A stretch of 64,000 bases of DNA from an uncultured Azospirillaceae bacterium. Lineage in GTDB: Bacteria > Pseudomonadota > Alphaproteobacteria > Rickettsiales > UBA3002. This document shows positions 2,081-62,584 of the stretch, one piece after another. Position numbers and translations under genes: made by a program. Under the pieces are notes generated by a model. That model searched no databases. It saw nothing but the letters and a program-made list of their open reading frames with translations, and had not been told where the DNA came from. The stretch covers positions 133,015-197,014 of the forward strand of contig CAYGTO010000003.1 in assembly GCA_964352815.1 (NCBI GenBank), given 5' to 3'. How positions within the stretch are numbered: position 1 is the stretch's first letter; every line of letters begins with the position of its first letter.

Positions 2081-6717
<4,637 letters not shown>

Positions 6718-13664: not shown

Positions 13665-14687
13665 TTATGAGCTATCTGGCTTACCGATGCGCTGAATCTC
13701 CCATTGGAGCTCCACCCCGAAGTGATCCTTGACCCGGCGGCGCATCTCTTCCCCAAGCGCTTCCAGGTCGCGTGCTGTCGCTGTGCCGGTGTTAATCATG
13801 AAGTTGCAATGCTTCTCCGACATCTGCGCACCTTCTAATTCTAAACCTCGGCCGCCCACCGCGTCAATCATTTGCCACGCTTTGTGCCCCTCGGGATTCT
13901 TAAAGGTGCTGCCCCCCGTCCGCTCGCGCACTGGCTGGGTCGCCTCGCGCGCCTGTTTTATCTCACGAATTCGCTGATGTATCTCTTCTGGCTCACCTTT
14001 CTCAACGCGGAAAATGGCCTTAGTAAACACCCAATCGTTCGGCGCGGTCGAATGGCGGTAGCTATAGCCCAGCTCATCGACGCTGACCCGTTTAGTCTCT
14101 CCCTCGCCGGTGACCAGTTCAGCCGCAATCAGCACATCACTCATCTCCGTGCCATACGCACCCGCATTCATCCGAAGCGCGCCGCCAATCGTGCCCGGAA
14201 TGCCGCTCAAAAATTCGAGGCCAGCAATGCCATGATCGGCGGCGTAGAGGGCGACATTGGCATCCAGGCAACCCGCGCCAACAAACAAAGACTCGTCACT
14301 CTGCGAGGAGGCGCCAGCCTCCGCGGCAGTCCATTCTCGCATCACATCGCTAGAATGGATCGCGTCGCTTCGCTCGCGAAATGCTTCACTCTGAAACCTG
14401 AACCCCGAATCCTGAACCCTGAGCTCCGTAAACCCCCGCCCGAGCTTGATGACCACCCCGTCGATCCCACCATCGCGCACGATCACGTTCGAGCCCACGC
14501 CCAGCACCGTCACCGGCAGGTCTGCGGGCTTCTGCCTCATAAAGTAAGCAAGGTCTTCCGCATTTTCCGGTTTAAAGAGCAACTCCGCTGGGCCACCCAC
14601 CCGAAACCAGTTGGTCTTCGCCAGGTCAGCGTTCTCGCGCAGCTTGCCACGGAGATCAGGCATTATGCTTGTTAGTTCATATTTCAT
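13665..14687 (-). CDS. murB: UDP-N-acetylenolpyruvoylglucosamine reductase, carrying a repeat-derived in-frame insertion
   Basis: GVGSN, GIPGTIGGALRMNAGAYG and GSTFKNP motifs. About 45 extra residues (RVQDSGFRFQSEAFRERSDAIHSSDVMREWTAAEAGASSQSDE) lie between GRGFTEL and LFVGAG. Confidence 0.9.
   Translation of the reverse strand: MKYELTSIMPDLRGKLRENADLAKTNWFRVGGPAELLFKPENAEDLAYFMRQKPADLPVTVLGVGSNVIVRDGGIDGVVIKLGRGFTELRVQDSGFRFQSEAFRERSDAIHSSDVMREWTAAEAGASSQSDESLFVGAGCLDANVALYAADHGIAGLEFLSGIPGTIGGALRMNAGAYGTEMSDVLIAAELVTGEGETKRVSVDELGYSYRHSTAPNDWVFTKAIFRVEKGEPEEIHQRIREIKQAREATQPVRERTGGSTFKNPEGHKAWQMIDAVGGRGLELEGAQMSEKHCNFMINTGTATARDLEALGEEMRRRVKDHFGVELQWEIQRIGKPDSS
14300..14384. repeat. nested-palindrome element, TTCGCGAG subfamily, inside murB
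   Basis: The minus-strand reading gcatTTCGCGAGcgaagcgacGCGATCCATTC...GAATGGactgccgcg...cgcctcCTCGCAGA is colinear with the glyS copy at 63442-63570. Confidence 0.7.
14389..14436. repeat. tandem heptamer array (TGAAACC family) inside murB
   Basis: tctgaaa cctgaac cccgaat cctgaac cctgagc tccgtaa. It encodes the QDSGFRFQS stretch on the minus strand. Confidence 0.7.
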
Positions 14688-15186: not shown

Positions 15187-16679
15187 GCGCTAGCGCTGTT
15201 ATGCTGGCCGATCAGTTTCTCCAGCTCTCCTGGCAGTGCGTTTGCCCATTTCGAGATGGAGCCGGCGCCGAGGCATATGACATAATCATTCGGCTGCGCA
15301 ATCTGGTGAATCGTCTCGGCGAGCTTCGTTTCAGATTCCAGCAGTGAGACTTGCTGATGGCCATGTGAGCGGATACCCTCGGCCAGCGACTCCTGACTGA
15401 TGCCCTCAATCGGCGATTCGCCCGCTTCATAAATATCAGTGACCACCACATGATCCGCATCATTAAAACAGGTGCAGAATTCTTCAAACAAATCGCGCAC
15501 GCGGCTGTAGCGGTGCGGCTGCACCACCGCAATCACGCGACTGTCTTTCTGGTCAGCGAGTCGGCGCGCTGAGGAGAGTGTCGCCGCAATTTCGACCGGG
15601 TGATGGCCATAATCATCGATAATCGTCACCCCATTCACCTTCCCCGTCTTGGTAAAGCGCCGCTTCACCCCTTGGAAATCGTTGAAGCCTTTGATAATCG
15701 CTGCCACTTCCATGTTCAGCTCATAACAGACCGACAGGGCCGCGAGTGCGTTGCGCAAATTATGATCGCCCTGCATCGGCAGGAACACGCCCTCAATCAC
15801 TCGAACCTCGTCGCTCTGCTGATCGGTGATTTCGACATCAAAGCGCTGGCCCTCGCCTTGCGGCTCAATATTCACCACGCGCACCATCGCTTGTGGCGAG
15901 AACCCGTAGGTGACAATCCGCCGGTCCGAAATTTTCGCCACCAACGCCTGTACTTCCGGATGATCGATACACAACACGCCGAAGCCATAGAATGGAAGGT
16001 TCTCAAGGAACTGACGGAACGCCGCACGCAGATTATCGAAGCTGCCATAATGATCGAGATGTTCCGGGTCGATATTCGTCACCACCGCAATGGTCGAGGG
16101 GATTTTGATAAAGGTGCCATCCGATTCATCGGCCTCAACAATCATCCACTCACCTTTGCCGAGCCGCGTGTTCGTCCCATATGCATTAATGATTCCCCCA
16201 TTAATAACGGTCGGGTTTCGACTCGCCGCTTCAAACAGACTGGCGAGCATCGAGGTTGTCGTGGTTTTGCCATGCGTTCCCGCAATGGAGATGGTCATTT
16301 TCAAGCGCATTAATTCGCCAAGCATTTCACTACGCCGCACCACTGGGATGCGCATGCGCCGTGCTTCGACCATTTCTGGATTTCCATCTTTGACTGCTGA
16401 AGAAATCACCACCACCGCGGCTTTCTCAACATTCTCAGGCATATGGCCAATCGCCACCTCAATGCCAAGGCCGCGCAGACGTTCGACATTCGGCCCTTCG
16501 GCAATGTCACTGCCCTGCACATGATAATTTAGATTATGGAGCAGCTCGGCAATACCGCTCATGCCAATACCACCAATGCCGACGAAATGGATGATGCCAA
16601 TATCGAGTGACATGGTTTTGCCAACCGGAAAAGGGCGAATCGGGATCGTCTTCCCGTCAGGGTTCACTGCCGGCGTCAT
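15183..16679 (-). CDS. murC: UDP-N-acetylmuramate--L-alanine ligase
   Basis: [12 protein letters not shown] and [12 protein letters not shown] motifs. There is an ATGA overlap with the murG stop. Alternative start at 16613 ([10 protein letters not shown]). Confidence 0.93.
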
Positions 16680-17910: not shown

Positions 17911-19035
17911 TTATAAAGCGCTGTTATACTCGCCATAGCGTTTACGAGTCAAGGCAAGCATCATCCCCATGCCCAATGCTGTCGCCATCACGGAAGAGCC
18001 GCCATAGCTGATAAAGGGCAGCGTCATGCCTTTAGCGGGCAGTAAGCTGACCGCCACGCCCATATTGATAAGCGCCTGAATTCCAAAGAGAGTTAGCAGG
18101 CCTGACACGGAGAGAATCACGAACAAATCATGCTCTTCATAAAGCTTGATAAAGCCGCGCAGCACGACAAAAGCGAACACACCCACAATGATCAAACATA
18201 AGAGCAATCCGAATTCTTCTCCTGCAACAGCGAAAATAAAATCCGTATGCGAATCGGGGATGAAATGCTTTACAGTGCCTTCGCCTGGGCCCTGCCCTAG
18301 CACTCCGCCTTCGCGGAAGGCCTGAAGAGATTTCTCGACCTGATAATTATCGCCGCTTGATGGGTCGAGGAAGTGATCGATACGCCGTTTCACATGCGTA
18401 AAGCTATGATAGGCGAGCACACTGCCCGCAATCGCCGCAGCAATCAGCATAATGACCCAAAAGAACGGCATACCCGCGAGGAAGAATTGCAAACCAAACA
18501 TTGCGGTAACGGTCACCGTCATACCAAAGTCAGGTTGCAGCAACAGGAGCGCGGCAACAATCAAATAAAGCGCGATCGCAATACGGTATCCCGGAAAGCC
18601 TGGCGTACGCATACGCTCGCTGAACAGCCATGCCAAGAGCACAGCGAAGGCGGGTTTCAAAAATTCAGAGGGCTGAAGTGACAGGCCAGCAAAGCGAATC
18701 CAACGCACCGCCCCCTTATTTTCAAACCCAATAATCGGCAAAAGCATCATCGCCACCACCATCACTAAGAATACAAACACAGCGAGCCGCCGAATCGTTT
18801 GTACTTTCATCATGGACACGCAGACAAGCGTGGCAATCGCCATAGAAATAAACACCATCTGACGCCAGACAAAATGGAATGAATCATGACCAATCCGCTC
18901 CGCCACGGCGGGGCTTGCTGCGGTCGTTAGCACGACCCCGAGGCTCATTAATACCATCAATGCGATCCAGGTCGGGCGATCAATCGTCCACCACCAACGC
19001 ATCAAAAAGGAGGGGTCCCGCCTATCGGTATACAT
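17911..19035 (-). CDS. ftsW: peptidoglycan glycosyltransferase FtsW
   Basis: Polytopic SEDS protein with PSEFLKP motif. Start placed at MYTDRRD (19035), just overlapping the murD end; the ORF is open to 19200. Confidence 0.9.
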   Translation of the reverse strand: MYTDRRDPSFLMRWWWTIDRPTWIALMVLMSLGVVLTTAASPAVAERIGHDSFHFVWRQMVFISMAIATLVCVSMMKVQTIRRLAVFVFLVMVVAMMLLPIIGFENKGAVRWIRFAGLSLQPSEFLKPAFAVLLAWLFSERMRTPGFPGYRIAIALYLIVAALLLLQPDFGMTVTVTAMFGLQFFLAGMPFFWVIMLIAAAIAGSVLAYHSFTHVKRRIDHFLDPSSGDNYQVEKSLQAFREGGVLGQGPGEGTVKHFIPDSHTDFIFAVAGEEFGLLLCLIIVGVFAFVVLRGFIKLYEEHDLFVILSVSGLLTLFGIQALINMGVAVSLLPAKGMTLPFISYGGSSVMATALGMGMMLALTRKRYGEYNSAL

Positions 19036-28315: not shown

Positions 28316-28395
28316 TTGGTATTATTTGGATATATTTGGGATATTATGGTTTTTATTTGGGAAAGTCAAGTTCGAAATTGGGGAAAACAGTGGAT
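28316..28395. promoter_or_regulatory. phased (A/T)TTGG(G/A) repeats, candidate MraZ operator / curved DNA upstream of mraZ
   Basis: TGG cores start at 28318, 28327, 28337, 28347 and 28358 (9-11 bp spacing), then at 28379 and 28391, in an AT-rich tract 225-300 bp upstream of mraZ. Confidence 0.4.
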
Positions 28396-28469
28396 TATCA
28401 ACACACTAGCTGTGGATAAGGCTGGGGATGAGGATGTGGAGATTAGGATCTAGGTATCTGAAGTATAAA

Positions 28470-28540
28470 GGTTTTAGTTTTCAGGTTGTAGGTTACAGCA
28501 TGGCTATTTCTGAAACCTGCAACCTAACACCTACAACCTA
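28470..28540. repeat. inverted heptamer arrays (GGTTTCA/TGAAACC family) forming a hairpin at the rnpB 3' end
   Basis: The left arm is ggtttta gttttca ggttgta ggttaca. A 13-nt loop follows. The right arm is tgaaacc tgcaacc taacacc tacaacc. On the minus strand the hairpin is followed by TTTAT. Confidence 0.75.
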
Positions 28541-28544
28541 TCCA

Positions 28545-29042
28545 ACGAAGAGGGCCGATAAGCCGGGTTCTGTCACTGGCATTGCCAGGGATGGCCATTC
28601 ATCTAGGCCGCTTGTTGCCAAACGGCTCATGCACCCTACCCGAGATGCTGGTGCGAAACTCACTTGCGGCGATTACCTTTGCACTACCAAAAGCGTTCGG
28701 ACACGGCCGCGCGCATCTCCTATTTGGGCTTGCTCCAGACAAGGTTTACCATGCCGCCTGTGTTACCAAAGGCGCGGTGGGCTCTTACCCCACCCTTTCA
28801 CCGTTGCTTTGCATATGCTCCCCGCTTCGGTCGTCTGACCTACGCGATGGAGCGCCGCTCAGGGCTGGCCTTGCTGCTGCAAGGAATATTGCCCCGAAAC
28901 TACATACAAAGCAGTCTACTTTCTGTGGCACTGTCTCTCGGATCACTCCGGGCGGGGGTTACCCGCTGCCTTGTTTCGTGGAGCCCGGACTTTCCTCCCC
29001 CTATCGCGAGCGATAGAGAGCGACCATCTGGCCCTCTTCGGA
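28545..29042 (-). ncRNA. rnpB: RNase P RNA (bacterial type A)
   Basis: The reverse complement contains GGAGGAAAGTCCGGGCTCCA, GGTGAAAGGGTGGGGTAAGAGCCCACCGC, GGTAAAC, GAGCAAGCCCAAATAGG, CCTAGATGAATGG and ACAGAACCCGGCTTATCGGCC. The P1 helix is formed by GAAGAGGGCC/GGCCCTCTTC at the two ends. Confidence 0.93.
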
Positions 29043-30424: not shown

Positions 30425-31033
30425 ATGAAACATACCACTGAAGCTTCTCCTCATGAACACGCAACATCAAGTTCTGGCATCCCAGTGCACTGGCGTTCTC
30501 ATAGCGTCGAGCCGATTGAATATGATCAGCTAGACGGCCTACTCCGCGACCATGGACTCTACGCGGACAGCGTACAGTTTTTTGAAAGAGCTAAATTTAC
30601 ACCAATCAAATTATATCAAACAACGTATGGTGGTGATGTGTATACAAATTACGGTATCATGGTCCGGTTCGAATCACTTTCATTCTCTCCAGAGATGTTG
30701 GAAGAACCTCTCAAAACTGAAGCTATGGATAATTACTACGAACTATTGGCCGGCCAAATAATTAAAGCGATCTCCCCTGGTGCTGAAGGCGCAGGCTCTG
30801 TTTGCAATGAATATGGGGACCCGCTCTACTCTGCATTCCCGCAAATCGTGAAAGACGAAATTGGGAATATATGCGTTACCCTTATGTTCGCCAGGCCTAA
30901 AGGGGTGTCAATGGACGAGCTCGATAAGGCCGAAGCTTCCATACTATTTCGTGATCAAATCGATACATATATTAGTAACATTCCTTGCAATTTGAACATT
31001 GCTCCTGTGCAAGCGAGCGTTAGCCGCCATTAA
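30425..31033 (+). CDS. hypothetical protein (orphan)
   Basis: 202-aa ORF divergent from the amidase gene; AT-richer by eye; no motif recognised. Confidence 0.5.
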   Translation: MKHTTEASPHEHATSSSGIPVHWRSHSVEPIEYDQLDGLLRDHGLYADSVQFFERAKFTPIKLYQTTYGGDVYTNYGIMVRFESLSFSPEMLEEPLKTEAMDNYYELLAGQIIKAISPGAEGAGSVCNEYGDPLYSAFPQIVKDEIGNICVTLMFARPKGVSMDELDKAEASILFRDQIDTYISNIPCNLNIAPVQASVSRH

Positions 31034-31902
31034 AGCTTATTGAACCGCACGAGTTTCGGTCGTCTGAAGACGATCACTGCGACGCCAACCATGGTGACGC
31101 AGGCGCCGAGGATCATGTCGGGTTTAAGCTCTTCGCCAAGCAGCGCAACGCTCAACCCAATCCCGATAAACGGAATCAGTAAGGAGAAAGGCGTGACTTG
31201 CGACACCGGGTATAGCCGCAGCAAATGATACCACAGCCCATACGCAACAATGGTAGAAATAATGGCTGAATAGATAATTCCCGCGCCGGCATTGAACGGC
31301 GTGTTTATGATCAACTCGATATGGTTTGACTCTAAAATCAATGACGCGGCAGCCAATTGTGGCAGCGCGGTCAGCGAGCTCCAGGCGATGATCGGGATGA
31401 TGCGTGTTTCTTCAAGGGTTTTGGCGTAAATATTCGATGACGCCCAACAAAACGCACCGGCGACCGCCAGGAGGAACGGCACCCATTGTTCGCTGACGTT
31501 CGGCGTGCCCGCAAGCAACATCAGCCCCATAAAGGCGATGCACAGCCCCATCGTGCGCCACATGCCGATTTGGTCTTTGAGGAAAATGGTGCCGAGCACT
31601 ACGGAAAAGGGGACGCCCATCTGAATTGCGACAACGGCGGTGGAGACATCAAGCCCCATGCGCAGCGCGGCAAAAACAAGCGAGAAATGCAGGCTCACCA
31701 TGAGCAAGGCAAGAATCGACAGCTTCCCCCACCCCATCGGCCGCGGCCCCGCGAACGGCAAGAGTAGAATCACCACCAACACATAGCGGATGAGGATGGT
31801 GTAGATTGGCGGGAAATGCATCACCGCATATTTCGACGCAACAAAATTCCCGCCCCAGCTGATGGCGACGATGATGGCGTAGAGAATGTGAATCGGTTTC
31901 AT
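31030..31902 (-). CDS. EamA/DMT-family transporter
   Basis: About 10 TM helices in a duplicated EamA-type arrangement, 290 aa. Confidence 0.8.
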   Translation of the reverse strand: MKPIHILYAIIVAISWGGNFVASKYAVMHFPPIYTILIRYVLVVILLLPFAGPRPMGWGKLSILALLMVSLHFSLVFAALRMGLDVSTAVVAIQMGVPFSVVLGTIFLKDQIGMWRTMGLCIAFMGLMLLAGTPNVSEQWVPFLLAVAGAFCWASSNIYAKTLEETRIIPIIAWSSLTALPQLAAASLILESNHIELIINTPFNAGAGIIYSAIISTIVAYGLWYHLLRLYPVSQVTPFSLLIPFIGIGLSVALLGEELKPDMILGACVTMVGVAVIVFRRPKLVRFNKL

Positions 31903-31939
31903 GGGCTAGGGTTTAGGGGTTCGGGATTAGGGTGTAAAG
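31903..31939. repeat. heptamer array (divergent GGTTTAG/GGGTTCG variant)
   Basis: gggctag ggtttag gggttcg ggattag ggtgtaa, immediately upstream of the transporter start. Confidence 0.5.
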
Positions 31940-43153: not shown

Positions 43154-43984
43154 CTACCTAAACTCAAACAGCGCTCGGAAAATCCCATGCCAGGTGTTTA
43201 CTTCCTGCGTGCTAAGGTCCGCTCTCAATAAAGAAGTGCGGATATTGCGCCACATGGCAGACTTTTTCTCGGGCACGCTCCAGAAATTCGCCTGATCAAG
43301 CATGGGTTCAAGCTGGTCAAACAGCGCCTGTAGCTCACCGTGGGTTGCATTTACACCGTCATCCTGAGAGAGCGCAGCGACCGAAGGATCTTCTATCCTG
43401 TGGCGCGATAGATCCTTCGCCGGCGGCTCAGGATGACGAAGATTAGCCTCCCGAATCCCGAATTCTTGCCTAAACCACTCATAACACACAATATTAACTG
43501 CTTGACCAAGATTCAGGGACGGATAGTCCGGATTCGCCGGAATCGGCAGAATCGCCTGCGCCAGCGTGACATGTTCATTGGTCAGGCCCGTGCGTTCTGG
43601 GCCGAAAAGAATGGCTACACTGTCATCCCGCGATTTAATCGCGGGATCTCTACTTGCATCCAGAGATCCCCTGGTCAAGCCACGGGATGACAACATTTCA
43701 CTAATATCCGCCTCCGGCTTATGCATCTCTCGGTCGCGCGCCGTGGTGGCCAGTACATAGTCACAGTCCGCTATGGCCGCTTCTAACGTGTCATAGAGCT
43801 GCGCCGCCTCAATCAGGTGCTTTGCCCCCGCCGACAGGCTCAGCGCCCGCTCATTGGGCCAGCCATCGCGCGGATTGACAATTCTAAGCTCCGACACGGC
43901 GAAATTATGCATTGCCCGCGCCGCCGCACCAATATTCTCGCCCATTTGCGGCTCAACGAGGATGATTTTCGGAGATTGTTGCAT
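43154..43984 (-). CDS. SpoU/TrmH-family RNA 2'-O-methyltransferase (TrmJ/LasT-like) with two repeat-derived insertions
   Basis: ILVEPQMGENIGAAARAM, ILFGPERTGL and SLNLGQAV motifs. The extra segments LSSRGLTRGSLDASRDPAIKSRDDS and HPEPPAKDLSRHRIEDPSVAALSQDDG coincide with the two repeat copies. Confidence 0.85.
   Translation of the reverse strand: MQQSPKIILVEPQMGENIGAAARAMHNFAVSELRIVNPRDGWPNERALSLSAGAKHLIEAAQLYDTLEAAIADCDYVLATTARDREMHKPEADISEMLSSRGLTRGSLDASRDPAIKSRDDSVAILFGPERTGLTNEHVTLAQAILPIPANPDYPSLNLGQAVNIVCYEWFRQEFGIREANLRHPEPPAKDLSRHRIEDPSVAALSQDDGVNATHGELQALFDQLEPMLDQANFWSVPEKKSAMWRNIRTSLLRADLSTQEVNTWHGIFRALFEFR
43358..43437. repeat. nested-palindrome element (GTCATCCTGAG subfamily) inside the methyltransferase CDS
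   Basis: 80 bp, identical at 75 of 80 positions to 45121-45200, in the same orientation. Confidence 0.9.
43622..43691. repeat. nested-palindrome element (GTCATCCCGCG variant) inside the methyltransferase CDS
   Basis: GTCATCCCGCG-atttaat-CGCGGGATCTCT-acttgcatcc-AGAGATCCC-ctggtcaagcca-CGGGATGAC. Confidence 0.85.
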
Positions 43985-44836: not shown

Positions 44837-46512
44837 CCAAGCAACCCGTAGGTAAGCGCGTCTTTGAGCGCCTCATAGGACGCATCGATAATGTTGTGCG
44901 ACACACCGATCGTGGTCCAGCTTTGACCCTTCTCATTCGTGCTTTCGATCATCACACGGGTCAGCGCGGCCGTTGCATCTTTCGGCGTTAGAATTCGCAC
45001 TTTGTAGTCACTCAGATGCATTTTCTTGAGCTTTGGATAGGTCGGCATTAGCGCGGCACGCAGCGCGGCATCGAGTGCATTGACCGGGCCATTACCCTCG
45101 CCTGCTGTCAGGCAGGTACCGTCATCCTGAGAGAGCGCAGCGAGCGAAGGATCTTCCATCCTGTGACACGATAGATCCTTCGCCTGCGGCTCAGGATGAC
45201 GGTTTGTTTTTTTGGATTTTGTAGCAACCGTCAGCTTCACCGTCGCCTCCGACACCGTCACCTTTCTGCCCTTCGCATTAAATCGCCGCTCATCAGTAAC
45301 ACGGAAATGCTCCAGCTCAAAAAATTCGGGCACCAGCCCCAGCTTCCGGCGCACGAGCAGCTCAAAACTCGCATCGGCATCTTCATAGGCATAGCCAAGT
45401 TTCTCGCGCTCCTTGATCAGCTTGACCAAATCATCCAGCTTCGGGTTCTCTTTCTCTTTGCCAAGCCCCATCGCTTCGAGGCGGGTGATGATGTTTGACT
45501 TACCCGCCTTATCGGACACCAGAATCTGGCGCTGATTGCCGACTTGCGCCGGATCAATATGCTCATAGCTCTTCGTGCTTTTCGCCATCGCCGAGACATG
45601 CAAGCCGCCCTTATGCGCAAAGGCCGCGCTACCAACATAGGGCAAATGGCTATTCGGAATCCGGTTCAGCCGCTCATCGACCAGGCGCGACAACTTTACC
45701 AGCTGCTGAAGTTTTTTCTCAGACGCGCCGGTTTTATAGCCCAGCTTCAGCATCAGATTTGGAATGATCGAAATCAAATTCGCATTGCCGCAGCGCTCGC
45801 CAATCCCGTTGATCGTGCCTTGCACCTGGCGCACGCCCGCTTCCACCGCCGCGATTGAATTCGCCACGGCCTGTTCGGTGTCGTTATGGCAATGAATGCC
45901 CAAATGATCGCCCGGAATATGCTGCGTAATTTGCGTTACAATCTCGCTGATCTCATGCGGCAGCGTGCCGCCATTCGTATCACACAGCACCACCCAGCGC
46001 GCGCCGGCCTCATACGCGGCTTTCAGGCAATCAAGCGTGTAGTCTGAGTTCGCCTTGAACCCGTCGAAACAGTGTTCCGCATCAAACAAAACTTCGCGCT
46101 TTTTCGACACCGCATGGGCGATACTGTCGGAAATCATTTTCACATTCTCTTTTTGTGAGACGCCCAATGCGTTCTCGACCTGCCAATCCCAGCTTTTGCC
46201 GACGATGCATAACGCGCCCGGATGCGCATCGAGCAGCGCGTTCAGCCCCGGATCATTCGCCGCGCTACGGCCATTGCGCCGCGTCATGCCAAAGGCAGTG
46301 ACCTTCGCTTTTTTAAGCTTCGGCTGTTCCGCAAAAAATTGATCATCTGTCGGGTTCGCGCCCGGCCATCCGCCTTCAATATAATCAATGCCGAACTCAT
46401 CGAGCGCCTTCGCAATCGCGATTTTATCAGACACGGTGAAATCAACCCCACGCGCCTGCGCGCCATCGCGCAGGGTGGAATCATAGAGAGTAATGCGGTC
46501 TTGTTTAGTCAT
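44833..46512 (-). CDS. cimA: citramalate synthase-type LeuA-family enzyme with a repeat-derived insertion
   Basis: LYDSTLRDGAQ entry, HCHND metal motif and a C-terminal LeuA-dimer domain. Start placed at MTKQDR (46512). The extra segment RHPEPQAKDLSCHRMEDPSLAALSQDDG coincides with the repeat. Confidence 0.8.
   Translation of the reverse strand: MTKQDRITLYDSTLRDGAQARGVDFTVSDKIAIAKALDEFGIDYIEGGWPGANPTDDQFFAEQPKLKKAKVTAFGMTRRNGRSAANDPGLNALLDAHPGALCIVGKSWDWQVENALGVSQKENVKMISDSIAHAVSKKREVLFDAEHCFDGFKANSDYTLDCLKAAYEAGARWVVLCDTNGGTLPHEISEIVTQITQHIPGDHLGIHCHNDTEQAVANSIAAVEAGVRQVQGTINGIGERCGNANLISIIPNLMLKLGYKTGASEKKLQQLVKLSRLVDERLNRIPNSHLPYVGSAAFAHKGGLHVSAMAKSTKSYEHIDPAQVGNQRQILVSDKAGKSNIITRLEAMGLGKEKENPKLDDLVKLIKEREKLGYAYEDADASFELLVRRKLGLVPEFFELEHFRVTDERRFNAKGRKVTVSEATVKLTVATKSKKTNRHPEPQAKDLSCHRMEDPSLAALSQDDGTCLTAGEGNGPVNALDAALRAALMPTYPKLKKMHLSDYKVRILTPKDATAALTRVMIESTNEKGQSWTTIGVSHNIIDASYEALKDALTYGLLG
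45121..45200. repeat. nested-palindrome element (GTCATCCTGAG subfamily) inside cimA
   Basis: 80 bp, identical at 75 of 80 positions to 43358-43437. Confidence 0.9.
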
Positions 46513-60250: not shown

Positions 60251-61210
60251 ATGTCGAAAAGTACATCCAAAACCCCCTTCGCATTCCAGGATATCATCCT
60301 GACACTTCAGCATTTTTGGGCGGAGCAGGGGTGCGTGATTTTGCAGCCCTACGACATGGAAGTGGGCGCCGGGACGTTCCACCCCGCGACGACGCTACGC
60401 GCGCTCGGACCGGAGCATTGGAACGCGGCCTATGTTCAGCCTTGCCGCCGCCCATCCGATGGCCGTTACGGTGAAAACCCCAACCGGCTGGGCCATTATT
60501 ATCAGTTTCAGGTCATTCTGAAGCCCTCACCCGACAACATCCAGCAGCTTTATCTCGACTCGATCGCCGCGCTCGGCATCGATCCGCTCAAACATGATAT
60601 TCGTTTCGTGGAAGATGACTGGGAATCCCCTACTCTTGGCGCGTGGGGGCTGGGCTGGGAAGTCTGGTGCGACGGCATGGAAGTGACGCAATTCACCTAT
60701 TTTCAGCAAGTGGGCGGCATTGAGTGCAAGCCCGTCTCCGGCGAGCTAACCTACGGGCTGGAGCGGCTGGCGATGTATATTCAGGGCGTTGAGAATGTGT
60801 ATGACCTGGTATGGAATCAGGTGCCTGGTGCCAGGGGCCAGGGGTCAGGAAGTCATCCTGAAACCCGAAACCTGAAACCTGTAACCTATGGCGATGTGTT
60901 CCTACGCAATGAACGCGAGCAAACCGCCTATAGCCTAGAGCATGCAAACACCGACATATTGCTGCAACATTTTAAAGATGCCGAAGCCGAATGCGCGCAG
61001 CTTCTTGAAAAGAAACTTGCTTTGCCTGCCTATGATCACTGCATCAAAGCCTCGCATCTGTTCAACCTGCTCGATGCGCGTGGGGTGATTTCGGTGACCG
61101 AACGTGCGGCATATATTGGCCGCGTCCGCGCCTTAGCCAAAGGCTGCTGTGAAGAATATGTGAGGGGTCAGGTTTCAGGTTTCGGGTTTCAGGAAAAAGA
61201 GGCTTCATGA
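60251..61210 (+). CDS. glyQ: glycine--tRNA ligase alpha subunit, with an internal and a C-terminal repeat-derived segment
   Basis: [17 protein letters not shown] entry, colinear with E. coli GlyQ. The extra [22 protein letters not shown] lies before YGDVF. The C-terminus [14 protein letters not shown] is encoded by the heptamer array. Confidence 0.92.
60820..60886. repeat. inverted heptamer arrays inside glyQ
   Basis: The left arm is ggtgcct ggtgcca ggggcca ggggtca. The loop is aagtcat. The right arm is cctgaaa cccgaaa cctgaaa cctgtaa. Confidence 0.8.
61164..61193. repeat. heptamer array, left arm flanking the four-helix-bundle gene
   Basis: ggggtca ggtttca ggtttcg ggtttca gg. This is the inverted complement of 61570-61600. 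Confidence 0.8.
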
Positions 61211-61587
61211 TTCGTTCTTATCAGGATTTAGAGGTGTGGAAGAAATCCTTGAGGCTGGTTAAAGACGTGTATGGCTGCACAAGACTTTACCCAAAATCCG
61301 AACTCTATGGCCTTGTAAGCCAGACACAACGAGCCGCTGTATCGGTGCCAGCCAATATTGCTGAAGGCCGCACGCGTTATTCCAAAAAAGATTTTGTTTC
61401 TCATTTGAAGATTGCTTCTGGCTCTTTAGCCGAGCTTGAAACGCATCTTTTCATTGCCACTGAACTCGGCTATATCACGATAGAACAGCGAGACGCTTTG
61501 TTAAATACATCCGCCGAGATAGGCCGGATGCTCAATGGCCTGGTGAATTCGTTGAAAAGCGAAAAACAACTGGAACCCGAAACCTGA
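61207..61587 (+). CDS. four-helix-bundle protein (23S rRNA intervening-sequence protein / Avd-like family)
   Basis: LEVWKKS..L.....Y.....[44 protein letters not shown] matches the family signature. There is an ATGA overlap with the glyQ stop. Confidence 0.88.
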
Positions 61588-61600
61588 CACCTGAAACCTA
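61570..61600. repeat. heptamer array, right arm flanking the four-helix-bundle gene
   Basis: ctggaac ccgaaac ctgacac ctgaaac cta. It encodes the last residues (LEPET) of the four-helix-bundle ORF. Confidence 0.8.
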
Positions 61601-61602
61601 TT

Positions 61603-61932
61603 ATGCAACGACTCATGCTCAAATCCAAGCTCCACCGCGCGAAAGTGACCGATTCAGACCTCAACTATGAAGGCTCAATCGGCATTGATCGCGACTGGAT
61701 GGATGAAGTCGGGCTACTCCCTTACGAGCAAGTCGATGTGGCGAGTATTGCGAATGGCGCGCGCTTCACCACCTATGTCATCGAAGAAGAACGCGGATCA
61801 GAGAAAATCGTCATCAATGGCGCCGCTGCGCATCTCGTGAATATTGGCGACTTGGTCATCATCATGGGTTATTGCGTGATGAGCGATGGTGATGCGCAGC
61901 AAGCAACACCGAAGATTAAGCGATTGGAGTAA
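61603..61932 (+). CDS. panD: aspartate 1-decarboxylase
   Basis: LKSKLHRAKVT entry and the self-processing site YEGSIGID; 109 aa. Confidence 0.93.
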   Translation: MQRLMLKSKLHRAKVTDSDLNYEGSIGIDRDWMDEVGLLPYEQVDVASIANGARFTTYVIEEERGSEKIVINGAAAHLVNIGDLVIIMGYCVMSDGDAQQATPKIKRLE

Positions 61933-61957
61933 GGAAACATCACTAGCGGAGGAAAGG

Positions 61958-62584
61958 ATGTCAACAAGGAGAGAATATAATAGAAAAGAGCTGTTCAAGA
62001 TAGGGGAAGACGGAAAGCCCGTCCATGTAAGCGATATTTTGTCATGGCTACGCAGCGAAAAAACCACGGATAGTGATATCGCATCACTTACGCGTGGGGA
62101 AATTTCGGCTATTTTGGGAACGGAGCACATTAATGTGAATCGATATGCTGCAAAGCTGGCTGCAGAAAAAGAGTTTCAACTTTTACAAGACTGTAGAGAA
62201 GAAAGAGGAAAGACCAGAATGAAAATGATTACCACAACTGATAACGAGGGTAGGATTGTCGACGCGATGTCAGTCTTTGAATCGCTTGAAGAGGGAGACA
62301 GAGCACTTGCGCGCGAAAGCATGGCTGTTTCACATAATAAAAGATTAAGCCAAGAGCTAGACCGCTTAAAAGATGCTGGCGGTGACCTTTTTAGGCAATG
62401 TTCTGCTATCATGATAAAAGATGCTAACAAAGCCCTCAAATTAGCGCATAAGATACAAGAATTCATGCATCATGATCTTGGTATTGCGTATACTGCCGTT
62501 GATACGCTTGTGGACTCGATTCAGTCGAAAGGCCCTTTAAAAGCGCTAGACCCTAGAGAGAAACGATCACCGCGAGCCGCCTAA
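61958..62584 (+). CDS. hypothetical protein (orphan)
   Basis: GGAGGAAAGG lies upstream of ATG 61958. TAATG overlap with the glyS start. AT-richer by eye; no motif recognised. Confidence 0.5.
   Translation: MSTRREYNRKELFKIGEDGKPVHVSDILSWLRSEKTTDSDIASLTRGEISAILGTEHINVNRYAAKLAAEKEFQLLQDCREERGKTRMKMITTTDNEGRIVDAMSVFESLEEGDRALARESMAVSHNKRLSQELDRLKDAGGDLFRQCSAIMIKDANKALKLAHKIQEFMHHDLGIAYTAVDTLVDSIQSKGPLKALDPREKRSPRAA

Follow-up and report, generated by a model that had tools for sequence, protein, structure and literature searches.

In many bacterial genomes no long simple repeats are more over-represented than tandem heptamers, the function of which has been left open (PMC4692102, PMC2700814). 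Here we describe a pair of inverted heptamer arrays that is translated inside glyQ, the gene for the alpha subunit of glycine--tRNA ligase, in a 64,000-nucleotide stretch of contig CAYGTO010000003.1 from an uncultured Azospirillaceae bacterium (hereafter "the window"), together with a related element 280 bp downstream that carries an open reading frame (ORF) between its arrays (61163-61599, hereafter "the cassette"). Both can be compared to the 23S rRNA intervening sequence (IVS) found in Coxiella burnetii, Leptospira, and others. The Coxiella IVS has a 28-bp terminal inverted-repeat stem, a Shine-Dalgarno (SD) sequence, and an S23p ORF; it contains three tandem GACAGAT heptamers, the number of which varies between strains, and RNase III cuts its stem where the first repeat begins (Warrier et al. 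2016, PMC4990558). Like the IVS, the cassette has inverted repeats able to form a stem around a purine-rich, SD-like sequence and an ORF of the PF05635 family, with tandem heptamers adjoining the ORF, and the glyQ insert is that stem without the ORF. The hosts differ: the classical IVS occupies helix 25 or 45 of 23S rRNA, whereas the elements described here occupy mRNA, one at an operon junction and the other in the translated glyQ coding sequence. RNase III cutting is known for the IVS and would apply to the window elements by analogy.

Dispersed heptamer arrays provide a second comparison. Rehm et al. (2015, PMC4692102) describe GGGAATC arrays in Xanthomonas and GGGGAYT arrays in Nostoc, with four units preferred and with 70-75 convergent array pairs per Xanthomonas genome. 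Most of these arrays separate ORFs of the same orientation and are no more than 50 bp from a start or stop codon, whereas 7-11% are intragenic, and the authors read them as G-quadruplex formers; a term search of the paper returned no statement linking GGGNATC repeats to four-helix-bundle genes. As in the GGGNATC repeats and the cyanobacterial short tandemly repeated repetitive (STRR) heptamers, the arrays described here have about four tandem heptamers each, are dispersed, and frequently form convergent pairs. In both cases, too, most arrays are found between co-oriented ORFs and near start or stop codons, with a minority inside ORFs. Rapid change of length and sequence between relatives is also common to both, and the glyQ insert of one orthologue (L082) uses the GGGAATC unit itself, with CCCCAGT occurring in L163. 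On the other hand, the units here are mostly not competent to form G-quadruplexes, and the glyQ copy, a hairpin in the reading frame of an essential gene, is shared by the members of a clade. In Geobacter metallireducens, the class 3 predicted global regulator binding sites are eight inverted pairs of five-heptamer MTYCTGA arrays (Aklujkar et al. 2009, PMC2700814). They share with the window a CTGA-type unit, as in CTGAAAC, and inverted arrays between operon genes; however, they were described as intergenic and read as protein-binding, with no coding-sequence copies or cassette gene reported.

Palindromic DNA inside coding sequence also has a precedent in the Rickettsia palindromic elements (RPEs), which are 100-150 bp non-tandem palindromes with family consensus sequences. 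In 2000, Ogata and colleagues reportedly described them as selfish DNA that resides in frame in housekeeping genes, is translated, and is tolerated in surface loops. To our knowledge, RPEs have no heptamer periodicity and no associated ORF-bearing form. Compared by description, the glyQ insert is likewise palindromic and in frame in a housekeeping ORF that remains intact, and a second palindromic family of the window is also in frame, in two further genes. Homology of the glyQ insert to RPEs is nevertheless unlikely because of its heptamer periodicity. MITEs (miniature inverted-repeat transposable elements), repetitive extragenic palindromes (REPs), and bacterial interspersed mosaic elements are similar in being short, dispersed, hairpin-forming, and non-autonomous relatives of a longer form. 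In contrast to these, the elements of the window are partnered by neither a transposase nor a REP-associated tyrosine transposase (RAYT), their ends share no conserved sequence, and no target-site duplication is seen; where a MITE would have a target-site duplication and an autonomous insertion-sequence transposase, the longer form here carries a four-helix-bundle gene. The kind of element is already known in rRNA and between genes. What appear to be new are its presence, in frame and throughout a clade, within an essential synthetase gene, the side-by-side occurrence of ORF-bearing and ORF-less forms, and the breadth of the association with four-helix-bundle genes; in the open-access literature we found no publication that ties the IVS, GGGNATC, and Geobacter arrays together or that reports such a hairpin translated inside an essential gene.

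We consider it likely, with a probability of roughly 0.7, that the glyQ segment is an ORF-less member of the heptamer-array hairpin family, most likely inherited within a clade, which persists as a tolerated disordered loop and whose left arm is decaying in this genome. On this account the segment is the ORF-less copy, and the cassette the ORF-bearing form, of one type of element. The insert lies in frame in the codons that link the catalytic domain and the C-terminal helical domain, where it is translated and tolerated, and uncultured alphaproteobacteria of one clade share it, with codon position and frame unchanged. The likeliest history would be one old insertion followed by repeated shortening or loss. 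Meanwhile the arrays turn over in concert, with units diverging between lineages and with the arms of a hairpin and the arrays of a genome staying alike. Of this account, the data show the anatomy of the insert, its membership in a family of the window, the site it shares with orthologues, the co-variation of its arms, and the general association of the four-helix-bundle gene family with flanking arrays.

The host gene itself is intact. The glyQ ORF (60251..61210, plus strand; ATG at 60251 and stop at 61210) scores 504 bits compared to an NCBIfam equivalog cut-off of 369 and matches NCBIfam NF006827 (E 8e-152), TIGR00388, and PDB entry 7EIV_A (E 1.5e-125), and it is host to both the array insert and a repeat-encoded C-terminal tail. 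The insert is a 67-bp inverted array pair, in frame, at 60820-60886. Its degenerate left array (60820..60849, plus strand) reads GGTGCCT, GGTGCCA, GGGGCCA, GGGGTCA, and GG, where the canonical unit would be GGTTTCA. By direct reading of the sequence, a 7-nt spacer or loop, AAGTCAT (60850..60856, plus strand), and the right array of CCTGAAA, CCCGAAA, CCTGAAA, CCTGTAA, and CC (60857..60886, plus strand) follow. Both arrays were found by Tandem Repeats Finder with a period of 7 and 4.6 and 4.4 copies, respectively. A preliminary description of this locus had given the same units and the same span, and re-reading the sequence reproduced them exactly. It had also attributed about 14 extra GlyQ residues to the inverted arrays by comparison with the E. 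coli protein; the E. coli sequence that it gave agrees with 7EIV chain A, and the extra residues are indeed encoded by the arrays, although the HMMER alignment gap at the array pair puts their number at 15 relative to the E. coli protein. In translation the loop comprises codons 187-212 (60809..60886, plus strand), that is, 26 residues between VYDL and YGDVF, compared to 7-16 residues in other alphaproteobacteria.

The cassette lies between glyQ and panD in the glyQ-panD-glyS operon. Its left array (61163..61193, plus strand) reads AGGGGTC, AGGTTTC, AGGTTTC, GGGTTTC, and AGG and is translated as the GlyQ tail. A purine-rich, SD-like leader, AAAAAGAGGCTTC (AAAAAGAGG), which is a candidate identified from the sequence, follows at 61194..61206 on the plus strand. 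The ORF (61207..61587, plus strand; 126 codons), whose ATG overlaps the glyQ stop codon, encodes a four-helix-bundle protein of the 23S rRNA intervening sequence protein, S23p, or Avd-like family (Pfam PF05635, E 5.7e-38; TIGR02436, E 2e-36; NF008911, 145 bits), with weaker similarity to the Avd protein of diversity-generating retroelements. The right array (61570..61599, plus strand) reads CTGGAAC, CCGAAAC, CTGACAC, CTGAAAC, and CT, supplies the TGA of the ORF at 61585-61587, and ends 3 nt ahead of the panD ATG. The two cassette arrays are inverted (61163-61192 and 61570-61599) and 87% complementary over 30 nt, as in an IVS stem; the corresponding values are 19 of 30 for the glyQ copy, with fold z-scores of -2.3 to -6.1 in its relatives. 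Inspection of the glyQ loop, with its 7-nt spacer, found no PF05635-family ORF there, and the insert is therefore classed as an ORF-less derivative and not as a full IVS-type member.

The glyQ insert and the cassette are closely related in sequence. The right arms of the two are 91% identical with the flanking CCTAT included, and 60856-60881 of glyQ is complementary to the left array of the cassette (61169-61194) at 26 of 26 positions. To judge from this near-identity, the arrays of the glyQ locus have evidently exchanged sequence recently. Heptamer repeats are also far above chance in the window as a whole: when 3 mismatches or fewer are allowed, CCTGAAACCYGAAACC, a motif of two units, matches 17 times compared to 0.76 expected, and 0 of 100 shuffles reach 17. 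Members of the glyQ-insert family occur at five other places, giving six sites in the 64 kb, and the arrays contain 3.7-4.6 copies of the 7-nt unit.

As an observation in its own right, the four arrays of the glyQ locus are mutually complementary (60856-60881 with 61169-61194, and 60817-60841 with 61570-61594) and would be potential substrates for inversion or deletion at the DNA level.

To place the insert among relatives, we compared 80 alphaproteobacterial glyQ loci from GTDB among the matches listed (67-76% identity). Such arrays were practically absent from these 80 loci, with one unrelated period-7 match (L023) at the 17-of-21 threshold, and the GlyQ loop was 7-16 residues long in the 57 of them in which it could be parsed. 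In closer metagenomic orthologues (73-85% identity), the loop was 26-65 residues long in about 28 of the 93 sequences with a parsed, non-chimeric loop. The two top-scoring metagenomic matches, P0001 (418 aa) and P0003 (441 aa), were excluded from the comparisons; in both, about 120-130 residues of the catalytic domain are duplicated internally, and both are probably assembly chimeras.

Seven long-loop orthologues (L081-L086 and L088) were examined as DNA, and all seven have an inverted pair of short tandem arrays at the identical codon position, with the right arm in the same frame as that of the window wherever this could be scored. The unit is GGTTTCA in L081, L088, and the window, GGGAATC or GGGTGTC in L082, GAATTCA or GGATTCG in L084, GGCTTCA in L085, GGCAGGT in L086, and an octamer, GGATTCGA (period 8), in L083. 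An A-rich, GGAAAAAGAG-like spacer is present in five of the seven (L081, L082, L084, L085, and L086), and the leader of the window's cassette, judged by sequence, appears to resemble this loop of the ORF-less hairpins. The gly operon includes a four-helix-bundle gene in five of the seven, which in L082 separates panD from glyS and in the other four separates glyQ from panD; the arrays in the operon of L085 share their unit with that locus's own glyQ insert. The preliminary description had proposed that close relatives encoding the same residues by non-repetitive DNA would count against its account. No such relative emerged: L087 (12-residue loop) and L170 (13-residue loop, the nearest GlyQ by distance) have non-repetitive loop DNA, no arrays, and no four-helix-bundle gene, and they, like the 57 GTDB loci, lack the extra residues, while every long-loop relative examined as DNA carries arrays. 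Loops of 13-15 residues such as WNxVPEGSxAPxxT look, from their sequence, like shortened remnants.

The insert also avoids stop codons. In the right arm of the window, the unit whose TGA would fall in frame reads CGA. We scored the seven copies with a heptamer period (leaving out L083, with its period of 8), and the would-be in-frame TGA unit reads CGA, CAA, CGG, or TGC in all seven, while off-frame units often retain TGA. The counts, 0 of 7 in-frame units compared to 8 of 21 off-frame units, are descriptive only, as the sample is small and any intact ORF requires this outcome.

The inverted arrays suggest a stem, and the preliminary description had called it a potentially strong mRNA hairpin. 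The inverted arms stand, but the strength does not hold for this genome: the left arm is complementary to the right at 19 of 30 positions (left arm compared with the reverse complement of the right), and the insert folds as RNA with -29.3 kcal/mol and a z-score of about -1.5 (-1.4 to -1.7, with 10-14 of 200 shuffles being as stable), and it is the weakest of eight sequences compared. In that comparison the fold z-scores were -6.1 (L081), -5.9 (L088), -5.5 (L086), -4.9 (L082), -4.5 (L083), -3.9 (L085), -2.3 (L084), and -1.7 (window). The window's left arm has drifted from GGTTTCA to GGTGCC or GGGGCC, and therefore its stem is weaker and the Phe-rich peptide of canonical arrays (SGFGFQ in the GlyQ tail, SGFRFQ in the MurB insert) is replaced by Gly, Ala, Pro, and Ser. 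A search of 60700-61700 with Rfam covariance models gave no match at E values up to 1.

The two glyQ arms change together. In an alignment of the window with the seven orthologues, from which the structure itself was derived, 81.5% of cells form pairs, a share that none of 500 shuffles attains and that compares to 71.5% in shuffled data. Double-sided changes occur in 8 of the 15 pairs, a number reached by 3 of 500 shuffles, and the covariation score is 0.33 compared to at most 0.12 when partners are slid by 1-3 columns. By analogy with intervening sequences, the array arms may act as a double-stranded RNA stem that RNase III could cut. The decayed left arm would leave the local hairpin of the window nearly inert.

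Pairing with the array where glyQ ends would remain available to the intact right arm. When 60800-61620 was folded as one RNA, the right arm of glyQ and the left arm of the cassette formed a perfect 26-bp duplex, and the degenerate left arm of glyQ paired with the right arm of the cassette, in both the minimum free energy (MFE) and centroid structures (z -3.9, from 20 shuffles; a thermodynamic prediction in which translation is ignored). In this model the stronger predicted pairing of the right arm is therefore long-range, with the array at the 3' end of glyQ, and the predicted duplex (60856-60881/61169-61194) would enclose the final 287 nt of the gene.

The preliminary description had suggested that a strong hairpin could affect translation or mRNA stability, a reading that the data support only in part. 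These structures could also be read as cis-regulatory, with the hairpin or the long-range duplex slowing ribosomes or offering an RNase III site and thereby tuning GlyQ relative to GlyS. Relatives keep the hairpin with compensatory changes, the perfect duplex appears in both predicted folds, and the insert site persists across a clade, all of which speaks for this reading. However, the local hairpin is weak in the window and is lost in many close relatives, structures inside coding sequence would be melted by translating ribosomes, and the same arrays occur at unrelated places (in murB, at the end of the RNase P RNA gene, and at 31903-31935 ahead of a 290-aa ORF). We therefore think a regulatory role unlikely to be the explanation.

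In an AlphaFold2 model of GlyQ (mean predicted local distance difference test score, pLDDT, of 83), residues of about 186-212 are coil with a mean pLDDT of 53-60 and values under 50 at 196-199. This coil connects the motif-3 helix (170-178) to the helix with which the C-terminal helical domain begins (213-231). A pLDDT under 50 is also seen for the C-terminal tail encoded by the repeat (313-319). The peptide from the glyQ arrays is thus predicted to be a disordered linker loop. One could instead suppose that the loop is an adaptive extension which gives GlyQ a new interaction surface, the repeats being incidental. The insert is in frame, in-frame stops are avoided in all seven heptamer-period copies, and the left arm of the window has drifted toward Gly, Ala, Pro, and Ser codons, which can be cited in its favor. 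Nevertheless, loop sequence and length (26-65 residues) are hypervariable and the loop is often lost; pLDDT is low and no secondary structure is predicted; the peptide merely mirrors the nucleotide unit of each lineage; and an in-frame state is a survival filter, which is no evidence of function. An adaptive extension is in our view very improbable.

To assess whether the association between heptamer arrays and the four-helix-bundle gene extends beyond this locus, we scanned metagenomes with the window's 126-aa protein and obtained 80 unrelated family loci, whose best segments are 37-65% identical to it. In 54 of the 80 a period-7 array is present no farther than about 150 nt from an ORF end, with 38 loci having an array upstream, 37 downstream, and 21 on both sides. 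An inverted match of the flanks, at 20 or more of 24 positions, was present in 35 of 69 testable loci compared to 2 of 207 cross-locus controls, and ORF-less inverted array pairs are present in family loci as well. The array units differ nearly everywhere (GGGATTA, GGGGTCA, GGGACTA, GTTTTCA, GTGGTCA, GGGACGA, GAAGACA, TAGAAAG, and, in L163, CCCCAGT). Genes of the 23S rRNA IVS protein family are thus commonly flanked by arrays on either side, and the unit changes with almost every lineage. Variation is seen even inside a single genome: in addition to the GGCAGGT pair of its glyQ, an 18-kb stretch of L086 has several units unrelated to one another (CAGCCCC, CACGCAT, and CTAACAA, the last as an inverted pair), in arrays at 1475-1513, 6162-6203, 15643-15676, 16150-16180, and 17961-18041, and the unit sequence is therefore not fixed within a genome. 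Since units differ both across loci and within L086, what is conserved is the 7-nt period and the inverted layout, not the sequence.

These data also bear on the possibility that the glyQ array is a simple repeat born locally by polymerase slippage, possibly forming a G-quadruplex and unrelated to any element or cassette. Heptamers lead the long simple repeats of many bacteria, four-unit arrays have been read as quadruplex formers (PMC4692102), and the left arm of the window is G-rich. On the other hand, the arms are inverted and their unit matches other arrays of the same genome; the canonical GGTTTCA has GG tracts only, and many family units (GTTTTCA, TAGAAAG, and GAAGACA) have no G runs; and the site is occupied across lineages with junctions and frame conserved. 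We regard a local origin as extremely improbable. The G-quadruplex reading was rejected on unit composition: inspection of the left arm gave two tracts of GGGG plus several of GG, and not the required four tracts of three or more G.

Several points weigh against inheritance of the glyQ insert as an ORF-less hairpin element. The co-variation of the arms comes from eight sequences, with the structure taken from the same alignment, and it could stem from homogenization of the palindrome at the DNA level and not from selection for RNA pairing. Cleavage by RNase III is an extrapolation, by analogy, from rRNA intervening sequences. No direct repeat or target-site duplication is visible at the junctions of the insert (TGGAATCAG/GTGCCT and CTGTAACC/TATGGC), and no mobility mechanism is known. 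At the glyQ loop site of another locus (L169, 1045-1150; orthologue P0006) there is an element related to the second palindromic family of the window, and in a poorly resolved neighbor-joining tree of 93 GlyQ cores the insert-bearing sequences are scattered among short-loop forms; a single insertion with losses and repeated insertion at a hot spot both stand. Among the family loci, 26 of 80 have no array at the threshold used. Finally, the unit varies within the one contig of L086, and therefore no single sequence-specific factor explains the family.

The glyQ insert shows that a heptamer-array element can reside within protein-coding sequence. It could be speculated that inverted heptamer arrays are the cis-elements of one widespread class of selfish cassettes that unites four kinds of sequence described separately until now: the intervening sequences of 23S rRNA, the STRR heptamers of cyanobacteria, the GGGAATC repeats of Xanthomonas, and the "regulator sites" of Geobacter. 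The usual cargo of such a cassette would be a pentameric four-helix-bundle (Avd-like) protein that recognizes arrays of 4-5 units by their 7-nt period, and not by their sequence, and promotes their spread or homogenization. We offer this idea tentatively and think it possible but doubtful; if it is true, such elements could colonize rRNA, operon junctions, and, as here, the coding sequence of an essential gene. At this locus a cassette with an ORF is found beside a hairpin without one, and the hairpin resides in frame in an essential gene for an aminoacyl-tRNA synthetase. The metagenome scan adds a testable link that joins heptamer repeats to the classical intervening sequences of rRNA and to a family of proteins related to Avd of the diversity-generating retroelements. 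The locus also represents a second alphaproteobacterial lineage, besides Rickettsia, with palindromic selfish DNA translated inside housekeeping proteins. For annotation, elements of this kind account for odd loops, odd C-terminal tails (SGFGFQ-like), and apparent differences in gene length in these metagenome-assembled genomes.

In the cassette of the window, the right array supplies the stop codon of the ORF. A directional coding design, with stops in all three frames of right arms and open left arms, was considered as a general rule and rejected: among 79 arrays flanking four-helix-bundle family genes there are 75 sense stop triplets upstream and 77 downstream. Only 5 of 37 family ORFs terminate inside the downstream array, although the window's cassette does fit the design.

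Downstream of the cassette are panD (61603..61932, plus strand; TIGR00223, E 1.1e-40) and glyS, which starts at 62584. Between them, and overlapping the end of panD, is a 232-codon ORF (61886-62584, plus strand) without a Pfam match. Relatives have other small ORFs between glyQ, panD, and glyS, with products of 168 aa (L086; DUF2059), 148 aa (L088; opposite strand), and 124 aa (L170), and junctions of the gly operon seem to gather cassettes. The second in-frame palindromic family of the window suggests that heptamer arrays may also accompany further small cassette genes, such as those of the GxxExxY nuclease family and the ORFs of 148, 168, and 232 aa at these junctions. A tblastn search of the window found no further paralogues of the four-helix-bundle gene.

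Elsewhere in the window, an intergenic, ORF-less inverted array pair (28470..28539, no strand assigned) immediately follows the gene for RNase P RNA at its 3' end; the RNA fold of the pair has a z-score of -4.4 with 0 of 200 shuffles equally stable. The adjoining AT-rich sequence at 28316-28433 contains tandem repeats similar to TTGGTATTAT as well as TGTGGATAA, a motif resembling a DnaA box. The RNase P RNA gene (28543-29039, minus strand) is the single Rfam match in the whole window, which has no rRNA; the RNA has 497 nt, compared to the 367 positions of the model, with insertions of 85 nt in the P12 region and of 44 nt farther toward the 3' end.

A single array in murB (14390..14422, minus strand), translated as VQDSGFRFQS, opens an insertion of about 40 residues, VQDSGFRFQSEAFRERSDAIHSSDVMREWTAAEAGASSQSDES (14290-14425), that splits the FAD-binding domain of MurB (murB, 13665-14687, minus strand). 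In this insertion the array of the glyQ family comes first, and a GAGCGAAGCGA-type segment follows. A second hairpin was considered here and rejected, as the 156-nt insert folds like its shuffles (z -0.33), and one array is left. Another single array (31903..31935, minus strand) reads GGGCTAG, GGTTTAG, GGGTTCG, GGATTAG, and GGTGTA on the plus strand and abuts the ATG of the 290-aa ORF (31030-31902, minus strand), the product of which looks like a membrane protein. On the sense strand of this ORF the array places TAA or TAG in three frames just ahead of the start codon.

The second palindromic family has copies of about 81 bp at 43358-43438 and 45121-45201, both within minus-strand ORFs, with the sequence CGTCATCCTGAGAGAGCGCAGCGA.CGAAGGATC...GATCCTTCGCC.GCGGCTCAGGATGACG. 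It is translated in frame as RHPEPxAKDLSxHRxEDPSxAALSQDDG, in a SpoU/TrmH-family methylase gene and in a gene resembling those for citramalate or isopropylmalate synthase.

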